From positions 15,318-79,317 of IMG/VR virus record IMGVR_UViG_3300043694_000018: a stretch of 64,000 nt of DNA; one strand, written 5' to 3'. Source of the stretch: a virus. Its lineage: Duplodnaviria > Caudoviricetes. The stretch's first letter is position 1. The number at the start of each line of letters is the position of its first letter. Shown in pieces: positions 2,467-61,338 of this stretch. The position numbers were made by a program, and so were the translations under genes. The notes under the pieces are model-generated. The model saw nothing but the letters and a program-made list of their open reading frames with translations, was not told the DNA's origin and made no database searches.

Positions 2467-4637
2467 TCGAGCGCGTGATGCTCAACAACAAGATGGGCAC
2501 CGTGGTCTACCTCAACGCCGCGATGCTGCCGACCGACAAGGACAAGGCGAAGGCCATCAAGGTCCACTTCGATGACGGCACGATCACCTTCGCCACGCTC
2601 CAGCCAGACACCGTGCCGACGCCGAAGCGCTGGGTGAACCCGAACACGCCGTCGCCCTATGGCATGAGCGGGCGGCTCGACTGGGACGAGTCACAGCACC
2701 CGCGCGGCCAGCCAGCGAACAAGGGCCAGTTCGTCACTCGGGGCGGCGCGGCGATGGGCATGACCATCGGCAAGGCGGGCGAGGGACTGTACACGGCGCA
2801 GATCGACGGCAAGTACGCAGGGCACGCCCAGCTTGCCAGCGAGGGCCATCCGTTCGTGTCGGCGCTGCACGTGCCCGAGGAGCACAGCGGCAAGGGCGTC
2901 GGCCACGCGCTGTACGATCACATCGAGAAGCAGACGGGCAAGTCGATGGTGCCCAATCCGCTGCATCTCACCGAGCAGCACGCGGAGATTTGGAAGAAGC
3001 GGCTGAGTGATATGGGCGCGGCCGAGGCCAAGCGGCGGCTCACCGAGGCGCGCACCATCGGCTACAAGAACTTCGGCCAGAAGTACACGACGACGGACAA
3101 GCTGCACATGCCGCTGCGGGAGGTCGCGGGCAAGGCGCAGCATCCGGGCGAGGGTTACAGCGAGAACGCCTTCGTGGACGGCAAGGGCCGCATCCACACC
3201 AACAACATCTACGACGCCACGCGCGCGCTGTACGAGAAGCGCGATGTCGTGCTGGCGCAGCCGCGCGAGGTGTCGACGCTGCTCGATCACCTCCAGAAGG
3301 TCTCGGCCGAGTTCATCCGGCTGGGCAGCAAGGCTCCGGTGTTCGACCTGTGCAAGGTCAGCGTCGAGGGCACCAACCTGTTCTGCGTCGGCTCGATGGG
3401 CATCCCGCGCGTGAAGATGCCGCAACTCGACAAGGAGATGACCAAGAAGTTCCTGCACTTCCTGCAAGCCAAGGGCTACGAGGTCACGGACGAGGAGGAG
3501 TTCGCCAGCTACCTGCGCGCGACGCAGAACGAACTGAACGGGGCCAAGGTGGCGGGCATCGCCAACGCGATGCTGACCGGCAAGTTCGAGGAGGGCCGCA
3601 ACCCGCGACTGGTGATCAGCCGCGACAACTACATCCTCGACGGGCATCACCGCTGGGCAGCGCTGGTCGGCGTCGATGCGCTGAACAACCAGTTCGGCGA
3701 CAAGCTCATGAAGGTGAGCCGGGTCGGCATCGGCATCACCGACCTGTTGCGCGAGGCTGAGGAGTTCGGCGTGCCGACCGGCGAGGGCGTCGAGGTGATG
3801 TCGAAGGAGGAGGCGGCGCAGTCGGGCGGCAAGGCGACTGGCACGCCCAAGACCGGAGCACCAGCGACGAAGCAGCCCGACAAGCACGGCTACGAGTTCG
3901 TGTCGCCCAACGTCAAGGACCTCAAGTTCAAGGACGCCGTGGCGTCGCTCGAAGGCGACCGGCACAAGTACATCACCGCGCTCAGCGAGCAGGTCGACAA
4001 GGAACTGGGGCTGAAGGGCACGACCAAGCCGGTGCTCGGCGTCTGGACCGATGGCGCGGAGAACTCGACCATGACGACCTACACCAACCCGACGTGGCAG
4101 CAACTGGTGGCGTCGGCCTCGATGAAGGGGCATCTGGCGAACCAGAAGCAGGTCCTGATCTTCAACGAGGGCGACATCGATGCTGGCCACGGCGACGAGG
4201 GCTTCCTCGCGTCGTTCCCGGTGAAAGGCGACATGAAGGAGGTGTCGGACTGGCTGGGCCAGAACGGGCTGATCTACCACACGCTTGAACCGACGAAAGA
4301 CGGCGCTATCGTCCACGTCTACGGCAGCGATGACGCCACCATGCAGGCCGTGAAGGCCGCAGGAGACCACTATGGCACGACCGTCCAAGCCGGTGTCGGA
4401 CGAGGAGCCTTCCTCGGCAGCTTCAAAGAAGGAGCCGACGACGAGCAGCGCGCAGACGCCCGCGCCGTCTATGAGCGAGAGATTGAAGGCGCTGGGCTTC
4501 AAGGTGCGTCGGCCGTCTGGAAAGGGCTACGTGATCGGTACGGGTGGGCCAACAAAGCAGCCACCGGAAGCCAAGCAGTAGCACGTGCTGACGCACGCCC
4601 TAGAAACAGGGCATTGCAGTTTGCGGTATCCCCATGA
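2463..4637 (+). CDS. Head-associated polyvalent protein (GNAT-like + ParB/Srx-like + unknown C-terminal domain)
   Basis: ATG overlaps the previous stop. WDESQHPR..GQF motif; HSGKGVGHALY (GNAT motif A); ATQNEL..LVISRDNYILDGHHRWAA (ParB/Srx). Confidence 0.7.
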   Translation: MIERVMLNNKMGTVVYLNAAMLPTDKDKAKAIKVHFDDGTITFATLQPDTVPTPKRWVNPNTPSPYGMSGRLDWDESQHPRGQPANKGQFVTRGGAAMGMTIGKAGEGLYTAQIDGKYAGHAQLASEGHPFVSALHVPEEHSGKGVGHALYDHIEKQTGKSMVPNPLHLTEQHAEIWKKRLSDMGAAEAKRRLTEARTIGYKNFGQKYTTTDKLHMPLREVAGKAQHPGEGYSENAFVDGKGRIHTNNIYDATRALYEKRDVVLAQPREVSTLLDHLQKVSAEFIRLGSKAPVFDLCKVSVEGTNLFCVGSMGIPRVKMPQLDKEMTKKFLHFLQAKGYEVTDEEEFASYLRATQNELNGAKVAGIANAMLTGKFEEGRNPRLVISRDNYILDGHHRWAALVGVDALNNQFGDKLMKVSRVGIGITDLLREAEEFGVPTGEGVEVMSKEEAAQSGGKATGTPKTGAPATKQPDKHGYEFVSPNVKDLKFKDAVASLEGDRHKYITALSEQVDKELGLKGTTKPVLGVWTDGAENSTMTTYTNPTWQQLVASASMKGHLANQKQVLIFNEGDIDAGHGDEGFLASFPVKGDMKEVSDWLGQNGLIYHTLEPTKDGAIVHVYGSDDATMQAVKAAGDHYGTTVQAGVGRGAFLGSFKEGADDEQRADARAVYEREIEGAGLQGASAVWKGLRDRYGWANKAATGSQAVARADARPRNRALQFAVSP

Positions 4638-6598
4638 TCCGCGCCGCCGGGGTGCTGATCCTGAGCGCGGACGGTCGCGTGCTGTTCCTCAAGCGCTCGA
4701 AGTCGGGGGACATGCCGGGCAAGTGGTGCTTCCCCGGCGGCAAGATCGAGGACGACGAGACGCCCGAAGAAGCTGCCATCCGCGAACTGGACGAGGAAGC
4801 AGGCGTCAGTGCCAAGCCAGAGCACCTGACGTTCTGGACGCGCCGGGTCGCGGCTGACGCAGGCCCGGAGGAGGTCGACTTCACCACGTTCATCGTGCGC
4901 AACGTGGTCGAGTTCGAGCCGTACCTCGATCAGGAGCACACCGCCTACCTGTGGGCTGAGCCGAACCGCGCCCCGCGCCCGCTCCACCCCGGTTGCCAGA
5001 TCAGCGTCGACCGGCTGGACATGGACGAGCTTGACGTGGCGCGCGCGATCAAGGACGGCGACCTTCACGGCCCACAGCAGTACGAGAACATCTGGCTGTT
5101 CCCGATGCGCATCACCGGGACCGGCATGGCCTTCCGCCACAAGTGGGAGGAGTACGTCTGGCGCGATCCCGCGCTCTATCTCAATGACAATTTCTTGCAG
5201 CGTTGCAATGGCCTGCCCGTCATCCTCGAACACCCATCAACGTCGGTGCTGACCACCGACGAGTTCAAGGACCGCACAGTCGGCACGGTCATGCTGCCCT
5301 ACATTAAGGGCGACGAGGTCTGGGGCATCACGAAAATCTACGACGCGGACGCCGCGCACATCCTGCTCACGGAGCAGTTGAGCACGTCACCGGCCGTGGT
5401 GTGGCGTGACCCGGACGTGAACGCTGAGAAGGAGATGGAGAACGGCCAGACATACCTGATCGAGGGAAAGCCCAGCCTCCTCGATCACCTTGCGATTTGT
5501 AAGCAGGGCGTCTGGGACAAAGGCGGGAAACCCGAAGGTATAGACCTAGGAGGTCTGATCATGCCAGAGAACAGCAAGATCGCCGCCGACGACACCAGCA
5601 AGGGCGGCAGTGGAATCGAGCGCCTGCTCAAGGGGCTCGATGCGATGGCGTTGAAGCTCGACAGCTTCACGTCGCGCATGGACTCGGTCGAGGCGCAGGT
5701 CGCGAAGGTCCTCAAGTCCCGCAAGGACGACGATGATCGCGCCGACGCAGGTCCGCCGGGCGACGGCAAGCCTGTGCCGCCGATGCCGGGTCCGGGCGCA
5801 CCGCCGGGCGACGGCAAGCCCGCGCCCGTGGCAGCCGACAAGCGCAAGGACGCGGACGGCAAGCCGTTCCCCGGTGCCGCGCCGCCGATCCAAGGCAAGG
5901 GTCCGCCGTCACCGCCGCCTGCCGCCAAGGCCGACGAGGGCGATGGCGACGACAAGGACAAGAAGGACGACCTGCCGCCGTTCATGAAGAAGGCGGACGA
6001 CGAGAAGGAGCCCAACGAGGACCCGACCGCGCAGGGTCGTGGCGACGAGGGCAGCGAGAAGACCCACTTCCCGGCCAAGCCGATCACCGGGGCCGACGCG
6101 GCCAAGCGTGACGCCGACCTCAACGCGCTCAAGAAGGAGATCGCCGAGCTTCGGCTGCGCATCCCCAAGGATCGCTCAGACGCCGACGCCGCCCAGATGG
6201 CCGAGGATCAGGCACGCTGCGACAGCGTCGCCATGCTGTTCGGCACGTCAGCGCCGCGCCCGCTCGCGGGCGAGACCCGGCCAGCGTACCGGCTGCGCAT
6301 CTTGGAGCCGTTCAAGAAGCACAGCCCGCAGTGGCAGAATGTCGACGTTCAGGTCGTCGCCGTCGATGAGGCCGCGCTCAACGTGGTCGAGCATCAAATC
6401 TACGAGGCGGCACGGATCGCCGCTCGTGATCCCGCCAGCGTCCCGGTCGGCACGCTGCGGGCCGTCACCATGCGCACGCCCACAGGCCACATCGAGACGA
6501 AGTTCATGGGGTCGCCGAGCGCGTGGCTCAATCGTCATGCGGGCAACTCGCGGGCCTTCGTGACGGCGCTCAACCTCAAGTCGCCGACTGCAAACTGA
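4634..6598 (+). CDS. NUDIX hydrolase fused to DUF2213-like prohead protease/scaffold
   Basis: Intact NUDIX box GKIEDDETPEEAAIRELDEEAGV; GLPVILEHP..LDHLAIC..GVWD protease core; low-complexity P/D/K scaffold region; directly upstream of capsid genes. Confidence 0.8.
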   Translation: MIRAAGVLILSADGRVLFLKRSKSGDMPGKWCFPGGKIEDDETPEEAAIRELDEEAGVSAKPEHLTFWTRRVAADAGPEEVDFTTFIVRNVVEFEPYLDQEHTAYLWAEPNRAPRPLHPGCQISVDRLDMDELDVARAIKDGDLHGPQQYENIWLFPMRITGTGMAFRHKWEEYVWRDPALYLNDNFLQRCNGLPVILEHPSTSVLTTDEFKDRTVGTVMLPYIKGDEVWGITKIYDADAAHILLTEQLSTSPAVVWRDPDVNAEKEMENGQTYLIEGKPSLLDHLAICKQGVWDKGGKPEGIDLGGLIMPENSKIAADDTSKGGSGIERLLKGLDAMALKLDSFTSRMDSVEAQVAKVLKSRKDDDDRADAGPPGDGKPVPPMPGPGAPPGDGKPAPVAADKRKDADGKPFPGAAPPIQGKGPPSPPPAAKADEGDGDDKDKKDDLPPFMKKADDEKEPNEDPTAQGRGDEGSEKTHFPAKPITGADAAKRDADLNALKKEIAELRLRIPKDRSDADAAQMAEDQARCDSVAMLFGTSAPRPLAGETRPAYRLRILEPFKKHSPQWQNVDVQVVAVDEAALNVVEHQIYEAARIAARDPASVPVGTLRAVTMRTPTGHIETKFMGSPSAWLNRHAGNSRAFVTALNLKSPTAN

Positions 6599-8844: not shown

Positions 8845-9408
8845 ATGGCGACGGCGGTCGTCAACGGCGCGGGCTGGTTCCCGATCACCGGAACAGGCAC
8901 GTTCAGCGCCAGCGCCGTCGATCCCAACCTCACCGACTACCTGAAGTTCCTGCGTGGCGTGGTCGGTATCCCGGTCGAGGCGCTGCCCGACTCCTCGCCA
9001 TGGATCACCCAGTCGTACTGGTACGCCATGACGGTGTGCAACGAGCAACTGGGCGTGGTCGGCAACGCCGAGACGCCGCCGCCGCAGGTGTTCCCGACGT
9101 ACTACGCCTACGCGGTGTACAACCTCGGGGCCGACTTCCTCGTGCGCTTCGCCTTGGACGACCCGGCCGCACCGCCGCCGTGGAACACCTACTGGAAGGA
9201 CCTGCGCGCCAAGATGGGGCTGAACTCGTGGGTGCCGGGCGTCATCCAGTCGTCCAGCGATCAGGGCACGTCACAGAGCTTCATGATTCCTGACTGGTAT
9301 CGCCAGATCAGCCTCGGCGACCAAATGCTGCTCCAGACGCCGTGGGGCCGACAGTACCTCGCGCTGGCGCAGGCCTACGGCCCGACGATCTGGGGGCTCA
9401 CGCCATGA
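8845..9408 (+). CDS. Head-tail connector (DUF4054-like)
   Basis: SSSDQGTSQS..QTPWGRQYLALAQ motif typical of this neck protein. Confidence 0.65.
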   Translation: MATAVVNGAGWFPITGTGTFSASAVDPNLTDYLKFLRGVVGIPVEALPDSSPWITQSYWYAMTVCNEQLGVVGNAETPPPQVFPTYYAYAVYNLGADFLVRFALDDPAAPPPWNTYWKDLRAKMGLNSWVPGVIQSSSDQGTSQSFMIPDWYRQISLGDQMLLQTPWGRQYLALAQAYGPTIWGLTP

Positions 9409-14751: not shown

Positions 14752-16806
14752 ATGGCCGTCAACGCTCACGCTCAAGCCATCTTCAGCACTCAGGTCAACC
14801 CGTCGCTCGTGCCGGGTGCGACGACTGGGCCACAGCAGCCCAGCGCGCAGTCGCTGACGCCCGCAAATCAGGCCATGCAGAAGTGGCAACAGGCGCAGAA
14901 GCAGGCGCTGGACCTGTCGAAGCAATTCCTCAAGACGATGCAGGACCTGACGAAGGCGATCCAGTCGCTGCAACAGACGCTGGTGAAGATGGTGCCGCAA
15001 ATCGCGGCGGCGGCGCAGCACACCAAGATGATGATGCACCACGCCAGCGGCACGGAGCGCCACTGGAAGAAGATCAAGGAGCACGCCGCCAGCTATTACG
15101 ACCACGTCAAGGGCGCGACGCTGCACCTGCTGAAGTGGACCGGCATCTTCGGGCTGGTCGGTGGCGTTCTCGGCAGCTTCACAACCCTGTTCGGCTTGTC
15201 TTCGCTGGCCGCCGGGGTACGCGCCGAGAAGCGCGAGGCCGCAGGCCTTGGACTGGGCAGCGGTGAGAAGGCGGTGCTGGAGTCCTCGTTCCGGGGCATC
15301 TTCCCTGACGTGGGCGGGATCATGAGCGGCGTTGGCCGCGCCAAGGGCAACTACCGTTCGCCGGAGGCCCGCGCGTTCCGTCGCTTGGGGCTCGATGCGC
15401 GCACCATGAGCCCGTTCCAGATGAATCAAGCGATCCTGCGCAGGGTGTTCCAGATCGCCGACACGGTGCCCGAGGCGCAGTGGACGACCGTGCTCAAGAA
15501 CCAGCATCTCCAAGAGTTCGGCATCACCGAGGAGACGGTGCGACAGGCGCACGCCGCGACACCCGAGCAGCGCCGCAAGGCGTGGGCCGGGATGTCGCCC
15601 GAGGAGGTCAAGCGGAAGGGGCTGACGCCGGGCGCGCAGGACAAGTGGACCGACTTCGCCAACTTCTGGGAGGACGCCGGTCGGCGCATCAAGGTTGCGC
15701 TGATCAACAACCTCGACAAGATCATGCCGCAACTGGAGAAGCTGCTCGCCAACATCGAGCGCTGGATCACCGACTTCTTCGAGGGCGACAGTTTCGAGAA
15801 GCTGGTCAACTCCATCACGGCGGGCCTCAAGGACTTCACCGAGTACCTCGGCAGCCAGCAGTTCAAGGACGACGTGAAAGCCTTCAAAGATGGCTTCCGC
15901 GACGTTGTCGATTTTATGAAGCGCTGGTTCGGGCCGAGCGATCCGACGCTCGATCCCGAGGGCCATCCGGGCGGCACCGACGAGAGCATCAGCGAGGAGG
16001 AGATGCTGCGCAGGCGCGCCCGCACCAAGAAGTGGTGGAAAGAGAACATGCCGTCGTGGCTCGGTGGCGAGGCGAAGCCCTCGACCGAACTGGACGAAGA
16101 AGGCCATCCCATCGAACCGCCCAGCGGGCCGAAGGTCCGGCCGGGGCCGGGCCGCTCGGTCAACCCGCGCAACTTTCGCGCGCGCATGGGCTGGGGGCCT
16201 GACCCGGCGAACGACAACACAGGTGGCGCACGCGGCGGCGCGCGCACGCCGGGCAGCGGCGGCGGCAAGGTCGGCATCTCCGGTCAGGTGCGTGGCACGG
16301 CCGATCAGGCGATGAAGTTCTTCATCGAGCGTGGCTGGAGCAAGGATCAAGCCGCTGGCATCGTCGCCAACCTGATCGAGGAGTCGGGGCTCGACCCCAA
16401 CATCGGCGGCGACAACGGCAAGGCCTACGGCATCGGCCAGTGGTGGCCGGATCGACAGGCGCAGTTCCAGAAGATTTTCGGCAAGTCGATCAAGGGATCG
16501 AGCTTCATGGAGCAGCTTGCCTTCGTGGACTGGGAACTCGGCCACACCGAGGCCAAGGCGGGCAACCTCCTGCGTGGCGCGGGCTCGGCGCGTGACGCCG
16601 GAGCCATCGTGTCGCGCTACTACGAGCGCCCGGCGGCGGTGCAGGAAGCGATGAACAAGCGCGGTGGCATGGCCGACGCGCTGGTCGGCGGGACAGGACA
16701 GGTGTTCGACGTGAACCTCAACATCAACGACAGCGCAGGCGGCAACGTCACCTACGCCGCCGCTCCCATCGGGCTGCGCGGGCGGCCGAGGCATGTCCGG
16801 CGATGA
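14752..16806 (+). CDS. Tape measure protein with C-terminal phage tail lysozyme
   Basis: Helical N-terminus; AAGIVANLIEESGLDP..AYGIGQW lysozyme motif. Confidence 0.8.
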   Translation: MAVNAHAQAIFSTQVNPSLVPGATTGPQQPSAQSLTPANQAMQKWQQAQKQALDLSKQFLKTMQDLTKAIQSLQQTLVKMVPQIAAAAQHTKMMMHHASGTERHWKKIKEHAASYYDHVKGATLHLLKWTGIFGLVGGVLGSFTTLFGLSSLAAGVRAEKREAAGLGLGSGEKAVLESSFRGIFPDVGGIMSGVGRAKGNYRSPEARAFRRLGLDARTMSPFQMNQAILRRVFQIADTVPEAQWTTVLKNQHLQEFGITEETVRQAHAATPEQRRKAWAGMSPEEVKRKGLTPGAQDKWTDFANFWEDAGRRIKVALINNLDKIMPQLEKLLANIERWITDFFEGDSFEKLVNSITAGLKDFTEYLGSQQFKDDVKAFKDGFRDVVDFMKRWFGPSDPTLDPEGHPGGTDESISEEEMLRRRARTKKWWKENMPSWLGGEAKPSTELDEEGHPIEPPSGPKVRPGPGRSVNPRNFRARMGWGPDPANDNTGGARGGARTPGSGGGKVGISGQVRGTADQAMKFFIERGWSKDQAAGIVANLIEESGLDPNIGGDNGKAYGIGQWWPDRQAQFQKIFGKSIKGSSFMEQLAFVDWELGHTEAKAGNLLRGAGSARDAGAIVSRYYERPAAVQEAMNKRGGMADALVGGTGQVFDVNLNINDSAGGNVTYAAAPIGLRGRPRHVRR

Positions 16807-38572: not shown

Positions 38573-38588
38573 GCCCTCAATTTAGGGC
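38573..38588. promoter_or_regulatory. Palindromic operator around the -10 box of a minus-strand promoter
   Basis: GCCCTCAATTTAGGGC; minus strand TTGTAG-17-TAAATT. Confidence 0.75.
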
Positions 38589-38616
38589 GTGACCGGGAGA
38601 ACTACAAGCCCTCTCG

Positions 38617-38820
38617 TCACTGGCCGCACTGGTCGGGGAACGGTTCCTGCCCCTTGTGGATGCGGGCGTCGTTCGTCGTCTTCAGGTTGGCCCGGCAGGT
38701 CTCGACGGCCTTGCTCCGGGCGATGCCGTCGCCGATCAGGTAGCCGGTCAGCAGCACGGCACAGCCGCTCGTGCTCAGCGCAACGCCCGCCAGTACGCAC
38801 GCCATGGCAAGACGCTTCAC
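38617..38820 (-). CDS. Small lipoprotein
   Basis: ALSTSGC lipobox-like motif. Confidence 0.5.
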   Translation of the reverse strand: MKRLAMACVLAGVALSTSGCAVLLTGYLIGDGIARSKAVETCRANLKTTNDARIHKGQEPFPDQCGQ

Positions 38821-39056
38821 GATGTCACCTTGGCCAGCGTGGCGTAGCAGTTCATGCCCGCCGTGGTGCGGACCTCCGTGCCATTGGCCAGCGTGAACGA
38901 GAACGCGCCGCTGTTCACGGCGAGGTCGTAGGCGTCCTTCCACGTCTGCGCGCCGGGATAGGTCTGGCACGTGACATTCCATGGGCCGCGCGGCGTGGCG
39001 GCGGCGACACTGGTGGCCGCGCAAACCAGCGCGGCGATGGCAAAAACTCGAATCAC
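38817..39056 (-). CDS. Small secreted protein
   Basis: Signal peptide IRVFAIAALVCAATSVAAA; two Cys in the mature part. Confidence 0.55.
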   Translation of the reverse strand: MIRVFAIAALVCAATSVAAATPRGPWNVTCQTYPGAQTWKDAYDLAVNSGAFSFTLANGTEVRTTAGMNCYATLAKVTS

Positions 39057-39063
39057 TCAACAC

Positions 39064-39113
39064 CTTCCTTTCGACGCCCTAAGCCCGCGTCAGCTTTTCA
39101 GGGCTGAGCGGGC
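39064..39113 (-). promoter_or_regulatory. Conserved hairpin leader element, copy A
   Basis: Plus strand GCCCGC-g-TCAGC/GCTGA-GCGGGC; followed on the minus strand by TAGGGCGTCGAAAG. Confidence 0.55.
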
Positions 39114-39141
39114 CGGGTTCCTGTGGTAGATCGGGGTGGTT

Positions 39142-39176
39142 GCCGGGCGGCCAACACAGGACACAAACCGCCCGGC
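39142..39176. ncRNA. 9-bp hairpin with a 17-nt loop matching the early-gene leader motif
   Basis: GCCGGGCGG-CCAACACAGGACACAAA-CCGCCCGGC. Confidence 0.4.
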
Positions 39177-39229
39177 GTCCCCCACGCGAGAGGGAGCGGC
39201 TTCCCATCCGCTCCCTCCCTCCCAAGTTC

Positions 39230-40348
39230 TTAGGCAGCGACGGGCACCGCCTCGACATCGATCACCGGCTGGGCAGCGGCGCGGCGGCGGCGGCGCACCG
39301 GGGCCGCGTCGGCCTCCAGTACCTGCTTCCACTCGGCCTGCGGCAGTTCCAGCAACTGGCCGCCCAGCTTCTCGAAGTCGACGGCGCGGTCGTAGTCGGT
39401 GGCGTCGTGGGCCTGCGCGGTGACGGCGTTCAGCACGCCCCACTTGCTCAAGTCGCCGCCCTCGATCAGCGACCGCAGGATGCCGCCGGTCTCGGTCTCG
39501 TTGGCACCGATCTTCTGGGCCAGCACCTCGACCGCAGCCGCCGGGTTGCCGACGATCTTGGCCTCGGTCATGCCCTGCATCTTGGCGACGACCTTGCCGA
39601 ACTCGATCTCGCCGACCGCGTTCCGCACCATGTCGCGGACCTTGAGCAGGATCGCCCGGTCGTCCGCCTTCTTCGTGTCGTCGGCCCACAGGGCCTCGTT
39701 GTCTTCGATCTTGCGACCGACGTGACGAGCGCTGAAGCGCTGGTCCGGCAGGATCATGCCGTTGAGGCAGCGCAGGCGGTACACCATCGGCGTCACCGAC
39801 ACCGCGCCGAAGCCGATCTCGGAGTTCGAGATCACGACACCGGCCTGCACCACGTCGCCGACCTTGACCTCGCCCTGTACACGCGGGCTCACCGCCTGAA
39901 TGTACATGCGCCGCTCAGTCACTTCGCAGGAGACGATCTGGACTTGCGGGATGTCGAGCAGCACCGGCAGCGCGACCTCGGCGATTTCCTCGTTCTCGAT
40001 GCGCTGATACTGGTTCGACAGGAAGGCGCGGACGTTGTCCTTCAGGACGCGGACCATGCGCTTCTCGGGGTTCGCGTGGAACCACGTGTTGACGTTCTGG
40101 GCCAGAAGCTCCGGCTGGTCGGCGAGCATGCGGTCGTAGTATTTGACCGGGATGCCGAGGCGGTTGGCGATCTGGTTGTGAGCAGTCGGCCGGATGGCGA
40201 GCGGCTGCTGGCTGGGGATGACGAGCGACGTGCCCGTCTCGCTGGGCCTCATCTCGACCGACGCGGTGTCGGCGATGAAGTCCTTCTTCTGGGTCTTCAG
40301 GCCCTCGATACGCTGGGCCAACTCGGAAAGCGACAAACCTTTAAGCAT
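39230..40348 (-). CDS. DUF932-like phage/plasmid protein
   Basis: RAFLSNQYQRIEN..ISNSEIGFGAV..RLRCLNGM..RHVG. Confidence 0.75.
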   Translation of the reverse strand: MLKGLSLSELAQRIEGLKTQKKDFIADTASVEMRPSETGTSLVIPSQQPLAIRPTAHNQIANRLGIPVKYYDRMLADQPELLAQNVNTWFHANPEKRMVRVLKDNVRAFLSNQYQRIENEEIAEVALPVLLDIPQVQIVSCEVTERRMYIQAVSPRVQGEVKVGDVVQAGVVISNSEIGFGAVSVTPMVYRLRCLNGMILPDQRFSARHVGRKIEDNEALWADDTKKADDRAILLKVRDMVRNAVGEIEFGKVVAKMQGMTEAKIVGNPAAAVEVLAQKIGANETETGGILRSLIEGGDLSKWGVLNAVTAQAHDATDYDRAVDFEKLGGQLLELPQAEWKQVLEADAAPVRRRRRAAAQPVIDVEAVPVAA

Positions 40349-40402
40349 TGAAGTGGTAGTTCCTGTGTTTGCTCCGGCTGCCGGGATGGTCCCGCCGGGC
40401 AC

Positions 40403-40435
40403 CACAGAGATAGGCTCACTGAAAAAGTTTTGCAA
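40403..40435 (-). promoter_or_regulatory. Sigma70-like promoter
   Basis: TTGCAA-17-TATCTC. Confidence 0.55.
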
Positions 40436-40444
40436 GCCCCTGAT

Positions 40445-44769: not shown

Positions 44770-45173
44770 CGCACCACCTCCACCACTTCTCGCTCGGCGA
44801 GGTAGCGGTACTTGCCGTCAGCAAACTCGACGCGGGCGCGCATGTAGCGCGTGCCGCCAACGCTAGTCCGGCGCGTCCACTCGATGGCCGCGACCTCGCG
44901 GGCACCGTCGCCGCCGATCACCAGCCAGTCGCCGACCTTCACGGCCTCGGCCTCGATGTTCTCGAAGCGGCCGAGGTCGCCCTCGGCCATCTGCGGCACC
45001 GCGCGGGCCTTGGCCAGTTCGGCGCGGAGGTCCCACGCTCGGTCGAGCAGCTTGCGGCTGACGCTCGCGGCGTCGTAGGCATCCGACTCCAAGCCGTACT
45101 GGCTGAGGAGCTTGGCGGCCTCCTTGCACCGCGCGGAGGCGGTGAACAGAATCTCTACTTGTGTGTCAGTCAT
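44766..45173 (-). CDS. Hypothetical early protein
   Basis: Leader CCAACACAGGAC. Confidence 0.6.
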   Translation of the reverse strand: MTDTQVEILFTASARCKEAAKLLSQYGLESDAYDAASVSRKLLDRAWDLRAELAKARAVPQMAEGDLGRFENIEAEAVKVGDWLVIGGDGAREVAAIEWTRRTSVGGTRYMRARVEFADGKYRYLAEREVVEVVR

Positions 45174-45179
45174 GATGGT

Positions 45180-45237
45180 CCTGTGTTGGTTCTCTCGACT
45201 CCCCGACCCCGCTCACGGGTCCTAACCGTGGCGGGGT
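45180..45237 (-). promoter_or_regulatory. Conserved hairpin leader element, copy B
   Basis: ACCCCGC-t-CACGG/CCGTG-GCGGGGT plus a 24-bp block identical to 45841-45864. Confidence 0.65.
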
Positions 45238-45320: not shown

Positions 45321-45349
45321 AAGATGGGGATGCTGAAAGATTTTTGCAA
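45321..45349 (-). promoter_or_regulatory. Sigma70-like promoter
   Basis: TTGCAA-17-CATCTT. Confidence 0.5.
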
Positions 45350-45352
45350 GCC

Positions 45353-45832
45353 CTAAAAAGAGGACATCAAAACCTCGTACTTTTCGCTCAGCCCGCGCAC
45401 GAGATCGGCAGCCTCAGAGAAGGTATCGGCCGGGACGCGCAGGGTCTCGACCGGGTGCTGCCCGGCATCTGGGCCGCTCATCAGCGTCGCGTTGCCGTTG
45501 ACGTATTGCACCGTCCAGAGCGTCTGGACCTTGGCCTTTGGGTTGGCCACGACCACGTCGAGCGGCTTGCGGTTGAAGCTATCGTCCAACAGCGTCGCCC
45601 GCTCGTACTCGTAGACCTTCGAGCCGGGGAACGTGTCGAACACGATGCGCCCGGTGGTCCGGCCCTCGGCGACCAGCCTGCGGCTGGCGTGGCAGCCAGT
45701 CTTGAACTCCATGCGGGAGTTGTGCTTGCGCTCGCCCCAGCTTGGCTTGTAGGCGTACTTCGCCACGTTGGCCTCGCGGCCGTCCGTGAGCTTCACGCGC
45801 TCGGCCGTCACTCGATAGACATACGCACCCAT
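45353..45832 (-). CDS. Hypothetical early protein
   Basis: ACACAGGAG leader; AKYAYKP motif. Confidence 0.6.
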   Translation of the reverse strand: MGAYVYRVTAERVKLTDGREANVAKYAYKPSWGERKHNSRMEFKTGCHASRRLVAEGRTTGRIVFDTFPGSKVYEYERATLLDDSFNRKPLDVVVANPKAKVQTLWTVQYVNGNATLMSGPDAGQHPVETLRVPADTFSEAADLVRGLSEKYEVLMSSF

Positions 45833-45840
45833 TGAACTCT

Positions 45841-45899
45841 CCTGTGTTGGTTCTCTCGACTCCCTGACCCCGCGTCAGGTTCTCAGGCCTGAGCGGGGT
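45841..45899 (-). promoter_or_regulatory. Conserved hairpin leader element, copy C
   Basis: ACCCCGC-g-TCAGG/CCTGA-GCGGGGT plus the shared 24-bp block. Confidence 0.65.
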
Positions 45900-46870: not shown

Positions 46871-46955
46871 ATGGTCCTGTGTTTCCGGGCCACGGCGGCC
46901 CACCACAGAGATGGGGATTTGCAAAAAATTTGCAAGCCCCCGATCTCGATTTCAT

Positions 46956-50737: not shown

Positions 50738-50842
50738 CGATGGTCTCTTGCTAGGCTGAGGGCTGCGGTTGAAAGGTCCTGTGTTCCTTGCTCCCGCGCC
50801 CGCCCCGCTGAGCCCGGCTATCACCGCGCCCGGCGGGGCGGG

Positions 50843-56324: not shown

Positions 56325-56783
56325 CTATTCGAGGATCGGCGTCCGGCCCTTCGGCGCGGATGGCCGCACGTCGCCTGTGACATGGTGCGGCCTCGGCCCC
56401 TTGCCGGTGCGGCTGCCGCTGTGCTTGCGCGCCGGGCGATAACCGAGCTTCTGCGATGCGGTCGGTGCGCGCAGGATGAAGTCGCCGACCTCCATGCGGC
56501 CACCCCGGTCGAGCGCGATCAGTTCGCGCGCCAGCCGGGACGGTGTGGTGTAGCGCAGCCACGAGCCGTTCGGCTGCTTGACGAGGATGCGGCTGAGGTA
56601 GACGCGGGTCTCGCGAGAGTGCAGGTCACGGCAGATCGCCAGCGCCGCCGCGCAGTGGTCATTCGACTTGCGCTCGGCCTTGGTGATGTCGGTCTGCTTG
56701 ATGGTGAAGATGGCGTTGGTGCGCGCGTCGAACATCGGCGCACCCTCGAAGGTAGACTGTCGTCGCGGTGTCGGTCGCTTCAT
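56325..56783 (-). CDS. Hypothetical early protein
   Basis: CCAACACAGGAAGG leader; HCAAALA. Confidence 0.6.
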   Translation of the reverse strand: MKRPTPRRQSTFEGAPMFDARTNAIFTIKQTDITKAERKSNDHCAAALAICRDLHSRETRVYLSRILVKQPNGSWLRYTTPSRLARELIALDRGGRMEVGDFILRAPTASQKLGYRPARKHSGSRTGKGPRPHHVTGDVRPSAPKGRTPILE

Positions 56784-56965
56784 GATTCACCTTCCTGTGT
56801 TGGTGACGGTTGAACATCGATGGTGGGCGGATGGAACTCGACCGCCTTGAGCGTGCTCGGGTTCGTGCTGGTGTCGAACTCGAAGCGCTTGACGCGCGGG
56901 CAGCACATCCAGCTATGCGTCGTGGCGTTGCAGTACGGGCAACGCGGCTGCGGCGGCACAGTCAT
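56780..56965 (-). CDS. Small zinc-finger protein
   Basis: CPYC..H..CCPRVK. Confidence 0.55.
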   Translation of the reverse strand: MTVPPQPRCPYCNATTHSWMCCPRVKRFEFDTSTNPSTLKAVEFHPPTIDVQPSPTQEGES

Positions 56966-61040: not shown

Positions 61041-61303
61041 ATATGTCGGACGGGCCGCTGCACCCGGCGGGGGATTCCGCCGGGCCAGCCTGCCGTCCAG
61101 AGTTCCGTCTTACTCACCAATGCACCGCCCGAAGACGATGTGCGGCCGAGTTTGACCATGGCCGACCCCCTTAGAACGCGTTCTGGGCTAGGGTCGGCGT
61201 AGGCAGAAGCGGATTGGTGCAAAGTCCACTGGCGCTCCGAGCGTAGTATCTGCCAATGGGGAGGACGCCGCACAGCCCACGTTTCATGGGCTCGATATGA
61301 ACC

Positions 61304-61338
61304 TTGCGAAAGTTTTTTGCAAGCCCTATCTTGCGGGC
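61304..61338 (+). promoter_or_regulatory. Rightward promoter with operator around -10
   Basis: TTGCGA-17-TATCTT-GCGGGC-ATG. Confidence 0.75.

Follow-up and report, generated by a model that had tools for sequence, protein, structure and literature searches.

Phages time the expression of their genes mostly through proteins. In phage T4, the repressor RegA and the endoribonuclease RegB are proteins that shut off early mRNAs at the ribosome-binding site (RBS). The known phage antisense RNAs (c4, OOP, sar and the P4 CI RNA) each act, to our knowledge, on one locus. The c4 antisense RNA of phages P1 and P7 is part of the same transcript as its targets and blocks translation by pairing its complementary loops with ribosome-binding regions. 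Its position is upstream of one target operon, and RNase P excises it from the transcript. Some small RNAs (sRNAs) derive from a 3′ untranslated region (3′ UTR) and control the operon to which they belong. Examples are the Vibrio sRNAs OppZ and CarZ (PMC7398697), and DicF of the Qin prophage is grouped with them.

The hairpin described here, called H2, is found directly behind an early gene of a metagenomic phage and carries a loop complementary to the leaders of early genes. By analogy, the proposed regulator is similar to c4 (Rfam family C4), in that it would likewise lie within an early transcript and present a loop complementary to ribosome-binding regions. It differs in that H2 is located 3′ of a gene and its loop matches a motif common to approximately nine dispersed leaders, whereas c4 serves one operon. 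We found no match in sequence or structure between C4 and H2, and C4 is not even among the weak Rfam matches. With OppZ, CarZ and DicF, H2 has in common that the regulator is contained in the 3′ portion of an mRNA and that the seed is complementary to several RBS regions, among them the one of the mRNA that carries it. Those sRNAs, however, share the intrinsic terminator of the mRNA, and RNase E with Hfq sets them free, whereas H2 is intercistronic and is not followed by a U-tailed terminator. The resemblance to RegA and RegB is one of analogy: in both cases, a factor made by the phage would act on a sequence common to many early-gene ribosome-binding sites, but RegA and RegB are proteins and the factor proposed here is an RNA loop, without homology between them. 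GC-rich hairpins likewise occur between early genes as terminators or stabilizers of phage early operons (for example, the RNase III sites of T7). H2 is set apart from such stabilizer hairpins by its large loop, by the conservation of its sequence besides its structure, and by its complementarity to leaders. With no Rfam match and no terminator of its own, H2 is outside all described families.

The analysis covered a stretch of 64,000 nucleotides (the window), which corresponds to positions 15,318–79,317 of the IMG/VR virus record IMGVR_UViG_3300043694_000018. The record is a linear metagenomic phage sequence of 79,317 bp, approximately 70% complete and with a GC content of 65%. The structural genes are on the plus strand, between approximately 0.1 and 30 kb of the window. 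From approximately 61 kb down to 33 kb, a block of approximately 28 kb, all the genes are on the minus strand; they include recombination genes, a methyltransferase gene and numerous small genes of unknown function. The DUF932 gene (39230–40348, minus strand) encodes 372 amino acids, is assigned to Pfam PF06067 and phrog_1362, and has the identical protein P0001. A repeated promoter-like motif lies upstream of it at 40408–40437 (minus strand), is conserved in the relatives L016 and L033, and would drive the DUF932 transcript. The leader AACACAGGA of the DUF932 gene is found 3′ of this motif, at 40361–40369. The promoter-like motif itself consists of GCTTGCAAA, 17 nt and ATCT, and occurs in five copies where 0.8 are expected: three on the minus strand (40408–40437, 45322–45351 and 46917–46946) and a divergent pair at 61295–61331. 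Palindromes of the form GCCCT-N6-AGGGC often flank the copies.

The stop codon of the DUF932 gene occupies 39230–39232, and a spacer of 173 nt (39057–39229) separates the gene from a 79-residue open reading frame (ORF; 38817–39056, minus strand) that starts with GTG. On the minus-strand RNA, the spacer contains three hairpins (H1, H2 and H3), and the fold of the whole spacer has a z-score of −3.7. H1 (39190–39217, minus strand) and H2 are directly 3′ of the DUF932 gene. H1 is a GC hairpin of 10–12 bp with an 8-nt loop; its arms are 39190–39199 and 39208–39217, and it folds as 12 bp with a z-score of −4.3. The placement given in the preliminary description, next to a second hairpin of 10 bp in the 3′ UTR of the DUF932 gene, was thus confirmed. 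H2 (39133–39185, minus strand) has a two-part stem made up of a lower stem (39133–39141 with 39177–39185), an internal loop and an upper stem of 9–11 bp. In the upper stem, 39142–39150 pairs with 39168–39176 through nine G–C pairs around a 17-nt loop (39151–39167), precisely as the preliminary description had placed it. ViennaRNA adds two G–U pairs, which reduces the loop to 13 nt. Folded alone, H2 has a predicted energy of −24.6 kcal mol−1 and a z-score of −2.6. A long bulged stem with a large loop is the usual build of antisense-RNA recognition hairpins, and H2 matches it.

The third hairpin, H3 (39083–39113, minus strand), did not feature in the preliminary description. This bulged hairpin lies between the two cistrons and precedes the RBS of the 79-residue ORF. 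H2 is thus flanked by H1 on one side and by the module of H3 and RBS on the other, and is not at a transcript end. H2 and H3 are connected by a single-stranded linker of 16 nt, which contains a leader-like heptamer, CACAGGA (39119–39125, minus strand), with no start codon after it. The heptamer lies 16 nt downstream and can pair over 7 bp with the H2 loop, so that a pseudoknot is possible; the folding tools used score no pseudoknots. Downstream of the hairpins, the 79-residue ORF and an ORF of 72 residues (38582–38800, minus strand) both have hydrophobic N-termini resembling signal peptides, and the 72-residue product has a lipobox-like cysteine. As judged from these features, the two may be early lipoproteins, for example in superinfection exclusion.

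Several other identities for the spacer were tried and rejected. A terminator scan of the spacer called none at H1, H2 or H3, no T-run follows any of the three, and H3 is followed by two U residues at most. As an intrinsic terminator, H2 fails on its loop (13–17 nt against a criterion of 3–8 nt) and on the missing T-run; the stem and loop of H1 would be suitable, but there too the T-run is missing. No other copy of H1 or H2 exists in the genome, where only H3 has paralogs, and an origin of H1 and H2 as a repeat or mobile element is thereby ruled out. Two ORFs of 59 and 41 residues span H1–H3, and both are broken in L016, where the H1 loop no longer carries the ATG and a 1-nt indel is present; this excludes a conserved small protein-coding gene. 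Rfam returned nothing at the gathering score over the whole window, the C4 antisense RNA included. The best weak match was BTH_s19 on the plus strand (21 bits against a gathering score of 153), and all the others were below 22 bits. These weak matches (BTH_s19, Atu_C6, sRNA-Xcc1 and miRNA models) were dismissed as GC-hairpin noise.

The early genes share a leader motif. The sequence ACACAGGA has 12 copies in the window against 1.3 expected; nearly all of them lie 5–9 nt before minus-strand start codons, and none belongs to a late gene. In the full 79-kb record, AACACAGGA occurs nine times on the early strand and only twice on the opposite strand, in the H2 loop and in a plus-strand leader at 63640. 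The latter copy belongs to the divergent unit at the right end. AACACAGGA is absent from the late structural operon and from the 15 kb that precede the window in the record. Judged by this distribution, the AACACAGGA leader is an early-specific RBS cassette.

The anti-leader in the H2 loop comprises 12 nt (39151–39162, minus strand) and is the exact reverse complement of the leader at 45178–45189 (minus strand), 5 nt before the ATG at 45173 of a 135-residue gene. This is the best target, with a predicted duplex energy of −23.2 kcal mol−1. The leaders at 45839–45850 (159-residue gene starting at 45832) and 56792–56803 (152-residue gene starting at 56783), both on the minus strand, are complementary over 11 nt. 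Altogether, 9 of the 56 early leaders show contiguous Watson–Crick complementarity to the loop, over 12, 11, 11, 10, 10, 10, 9, 9 and 9 nt; one of the nine, at 50770, has an uncertain start codon. The 12-nt match to the 45173 leader claimed in the preliminary description is therefore correct to the base, and its range of 8–11 nt for other leaders becomes 9–11 nt in eight more of them. The leader of the DUF932 gene itself matches over 9–10 nt. The complementary segments of the early leaders include the Shine–Dalgarno sequence. When the loop was shuffled 300 times with its composition preserved, the number of leaders matched over at least 9 nt had a mean of 0.15 and a maximum of three. Pfam and PHROGs returned no function for the target genes. 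The leaders of the 45173 and 45832 genes (45174–45189 and 45835–45850) have approximately 20 identical bases, each after an H3-type hairpin, and look like a duplicated leader cassette.

Complementarity of this kind is not in itself rare. Over 13–17 kb, single antisense 10-mers of the leaders are at chance level, with 28 observed and 26 in a reversed-sequence control. In a scan of duplex energies over the early region, the leaders were high-ranking, but coding sites reached similar values; since the genome is GC-rich, duplex energy alone does not discriminate. What is unusual is that the length of the match, a motif common to many leaders, a location within the loop of an intergenic hairpin, and conservation all come together here.

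The informative relative for conservation is L016, a 2.75-kb soil-metagenome contig. L033 is of the same lineage and covers the upstream part only; the contigs L005–L008 are identical and were left out as uninformative. The DUF932 protein of L016 is 91% identical to that of the window phage (89.5% at the DNA level), and 76% of the fourfold-degenerate sites are identical. L016 has H1, H2 and H3 and uses the ACACAGGA leader; among the relatives compared, H1 and H2 are present only in the window phage and L016. The 112-nt block that begins at the base of H2 and ends shortly after H3 differs from L016 by three substitutions and one 1-nt indel, where approximately 26 changes are expected at the neutral rate of the adjacent gene (binomial P = 6e-10). 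We estimate that P stays below approximately 1e-3 even if the lowest rate among local third positions is applied. Of the three substitutions, two are among the five loop positions that the anti-leader does not cover, and one is in the other 107 positions of the block (Fisher p = 0.005). The anti-leader 12-mer is unchanged (0 of 12, against 2 of 5 for the other loop positions), and the stems of H2 are identical. One of the loop substitutions turns a closing G–U pair into G–C. The 16-nt linker with its heptamer is also kept, except for a 1-nt insertion just upstream of the heptamer. In H1, by comparison, a strong hairpin is kept while its loop is wholly replaced and its stem remodeled, and H1 serves, at the level of this alignment, as an internal control for a hairpin conserved in structure only.

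That the 12-mer and the stems of H2 are kept while the rest of the loop and the H1 loop diverged supports a sequence-specific RNA function. On the alignment with L016, the H2 loop is sequence-constrained and non-coding, and its anti-leader 12-mer is under purifying constraint. The preliminary description had expected the loop to persist where the leaders do, and L016, the sole relative sharing the leader motif over this region, keeps both the 12-mer and the stems. This conservation case comprises one informative relative, too few for covariation of the loop with the leaders to show. A recent exchange of the H2–H3 block through phage mosaicism could also mimic constraint, and the flanking DNA on both sides is rearranged. 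The 79-residue ORF is an indel relative to L016; as it is missing there, the H2–H3 block sits between mosaic breakpoints.

More distant relatives, with 55–72% protein identity (L001, L002, L009, L013–L015 and L018–L028), have a single hairpin after the DUF932 gene, L002 and L015 among them. At or below 72% amino acid identity, both the AACACAGGA leader and the anti-leader are missing. The AACACAGGA leader is thus limited among the relatives to the lineage of the window phage (window, L016 and L033), and leader motif and anti-leader are reported together in these same three, with L033 represented by its upstream part. L009, the 72% relative, has a diverged version of the leader ending in ACGGAGA, and no antisense copy of its own version was found in its early region. 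Canonical intrinsic terminators, with a GC hairpin and a T-run, follow the DUF932 gene in L018, L020, L025 and L028, which indicates that this gene often closes a transcription unit. In an 83% relative (P0002), the spacer is 115 nt. From these comparisons of spacers, H1 and H2 together are a lineage-specific insertion of approximately 110 nt. A blastn search of the phage GenBank collection gave no match, GTDB genome contigs gave none to the protein or to an exact 20-mer from H2, and IMG/VR searched by an exact 19-mer and 20-mer gave none.

The hairpin after the DUF932 gene in L009 and L013 is a homolog of H3, with the same loop and compensatory changes in the stem, and is followed by the same GTCGA-type leader. 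By this homology, H3 is an intercistronic element common to the whole phage family and does not count toward the novelty. Both H1 and H3 behave as intercistronic stabilizer hairpins, in that the structure is kept and the stems covary. A paralog of H3 is found in the window at 45856–45897. H3-type modules lie between other early genes as well and were recorded in the window at 39083–39113, 45206–45237 and 45867–45899, and in L009 in at least five copies (3891–3962, 4215–4278, 5279–5363, 5598–5674 and 9126–9198). The module has a CCCCGC/GCGGGG lower stem, a one-base bulge, and an upper stem of 5 bp with covariation among copies and among phages. Its loop is 8 nt, often CCUGA(A/G)AA, and is followed by a GTCGAGAG-type spacer and an RBS. 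The conserved loop suggests a protein-binding site, which might serve in processing or in nut-like antitermination. L009 encodes a NusG-like protein.

We propose, with a probability of roughly one in three, that H2 is a base-pairing regulator that acts against the RBS of early leaders in trans or, with the linker heptamer, in cis. H2 would be transcribed within the DUF932 early mRNA from the promoter at approximately 40.4 kb, which would require transcription to read through H1. The exposed loop would then be an anti-RBS seed that pairs with the A/C-rich leader and Shine–Dalgarno sequence (AACACAGGA) of approximately nine early genes, including the DUF932 gene itself. Such pairing would block the binding of the 30S ribosomal subunit; the action in trans and the repression are what we infer. 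The predicted outcome is an RNA-based negative feedback on, or shut-off of, one class of early genes. H2 could work inside the mRNA or after processing, and the linker heptamer could mask the seed in cis. A further-reaching version, in which H2 is an RNA-based global translational repressor that shuts off its targets as the DUF932 transcript accumulates and the leader mimic in cis gates the seed, we regard as doubtful, at about even rank with the terminator or stabilizer explanation considered below. On this version, H2 would be the RNA counterpart of RegA and RegB, and leader and anti-leader would co-evolve within the phage lineage. The preliminary description had suggested a 3′ UTR-derived sRNA with many targets, which the comparative evidence supports in part. 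The part that holds is the RBS-complementary seed with its nine leaders; an sRNA of the ordinary build fits less well, as there is no U-tailed terminator and H2 is not at the transcript end. Against the proposal, H2 has neither a promoter nor a terminator of its own, and the entire linker is as conserved as the seed, for which a model of the seed by itself does not account. H1, which lies upstream, might terminate part of the transcripts.

The main skeptical alternative is that H1 and H2 are ordinary terminator or stabilizer hairpins, conserved in structure only, at the end of a transcription unit. The match of the loop would then be a coincidence or a scrap of an inverted leader, and the identity with L016 would reflect recent recombination. 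The single hairpin at this place in the distant relatives, with T-run terminators in L018, L020 and L028, is in line with this explanation, as are the chance frequency of antisense leader 10-mers and the mosaic breakpoints on either side of the block (the diverged H1 and the indel of the 79-residue ORF). We nevertheless consider it doubtful. None of the three hairpins has a T-run or was called by the scan, the substitutions within H2 all avoid the 12-mer, the sole wrong-strand copy of the motif outside a leader in 79 kb sits exactly in the loop, and shuffled loops never match so many leaders. Only slightly less probable, and to be taken seriously, is that the region is a structural element in cis, in which the H2 loop and the linker heptamer form an H-type pseudoknot of 7 bp. 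Such a pseudoknot could be a processing signal, a barrier to exonucleases, or a means to control the access of ribosomes or Rho to the downstream small-protein gene; the complementarity to leaders would be a by-product, with the copy in the linker descended from a leader. L016 conserves the two partners together with the rest of the 16-nt linker, and by a rough estimate the chance that a loop of 17 nt and a linker of 16 nt match over 7 nt is approximately 0.01. The geometry is feasible, with 6 nt and 4 nt left to flank the paired part of the loop, and the linker motif, having no start codon, is not kept as an RBS. These points are set against the lack of covariation between the two sequences available, the better fit of the loop to real leaders (9–12 nt) than to the linker (7 nt), and conserved loop positions that go beyond the seven that would pair. 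We also know of no bacterial role that requires a pseudoknot at such a position.

Two further explanations place the function outside the minus-strand RNA. The H2–H3 block could be bound by a phage protein as double-stranded or cruciform DNA, for example by a protein that also recognizes the motif at the early genes. This would account for the conservation along the whole block, including stretches predicted to be single-stranded in the RNA. We consider it very unlikely, as the other copies of the motif lie 5–9 nt before start codons in the orientation of the genes, which is what is expected of an RBS element acting in RNA, and H2 is not repeated elsewhere in the genome. A transcript of the plus strand that displays the leader motif in a loop and titrates a leader-binding factor, the decoy raised in the preliminary description, is disfavored to the point of being highly improbable. 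The one point in its favor is that the plus strand, too, can form the hairpin (z = −3.1). That fold is weaker (−85 against −98 kcal mol−1 for the minus strand), the region is inside the 28-kb block of minus-strand genes, and no plus-strand promoter is nearby, either of the sigma-70 type or of the repeated type of the phage itself.

If the match of the H2 loop is structural or incidental, the region is a usual cluster of intercistronic hairpins. If H2 is the base-pairing regulator proposed here, one loop directed against a leader cassette that many early genes have in common would constitute a compact RNA ‘regulon switch’, and it would account for the retention of an extended, early-specific RBS leader in this phage lineage.
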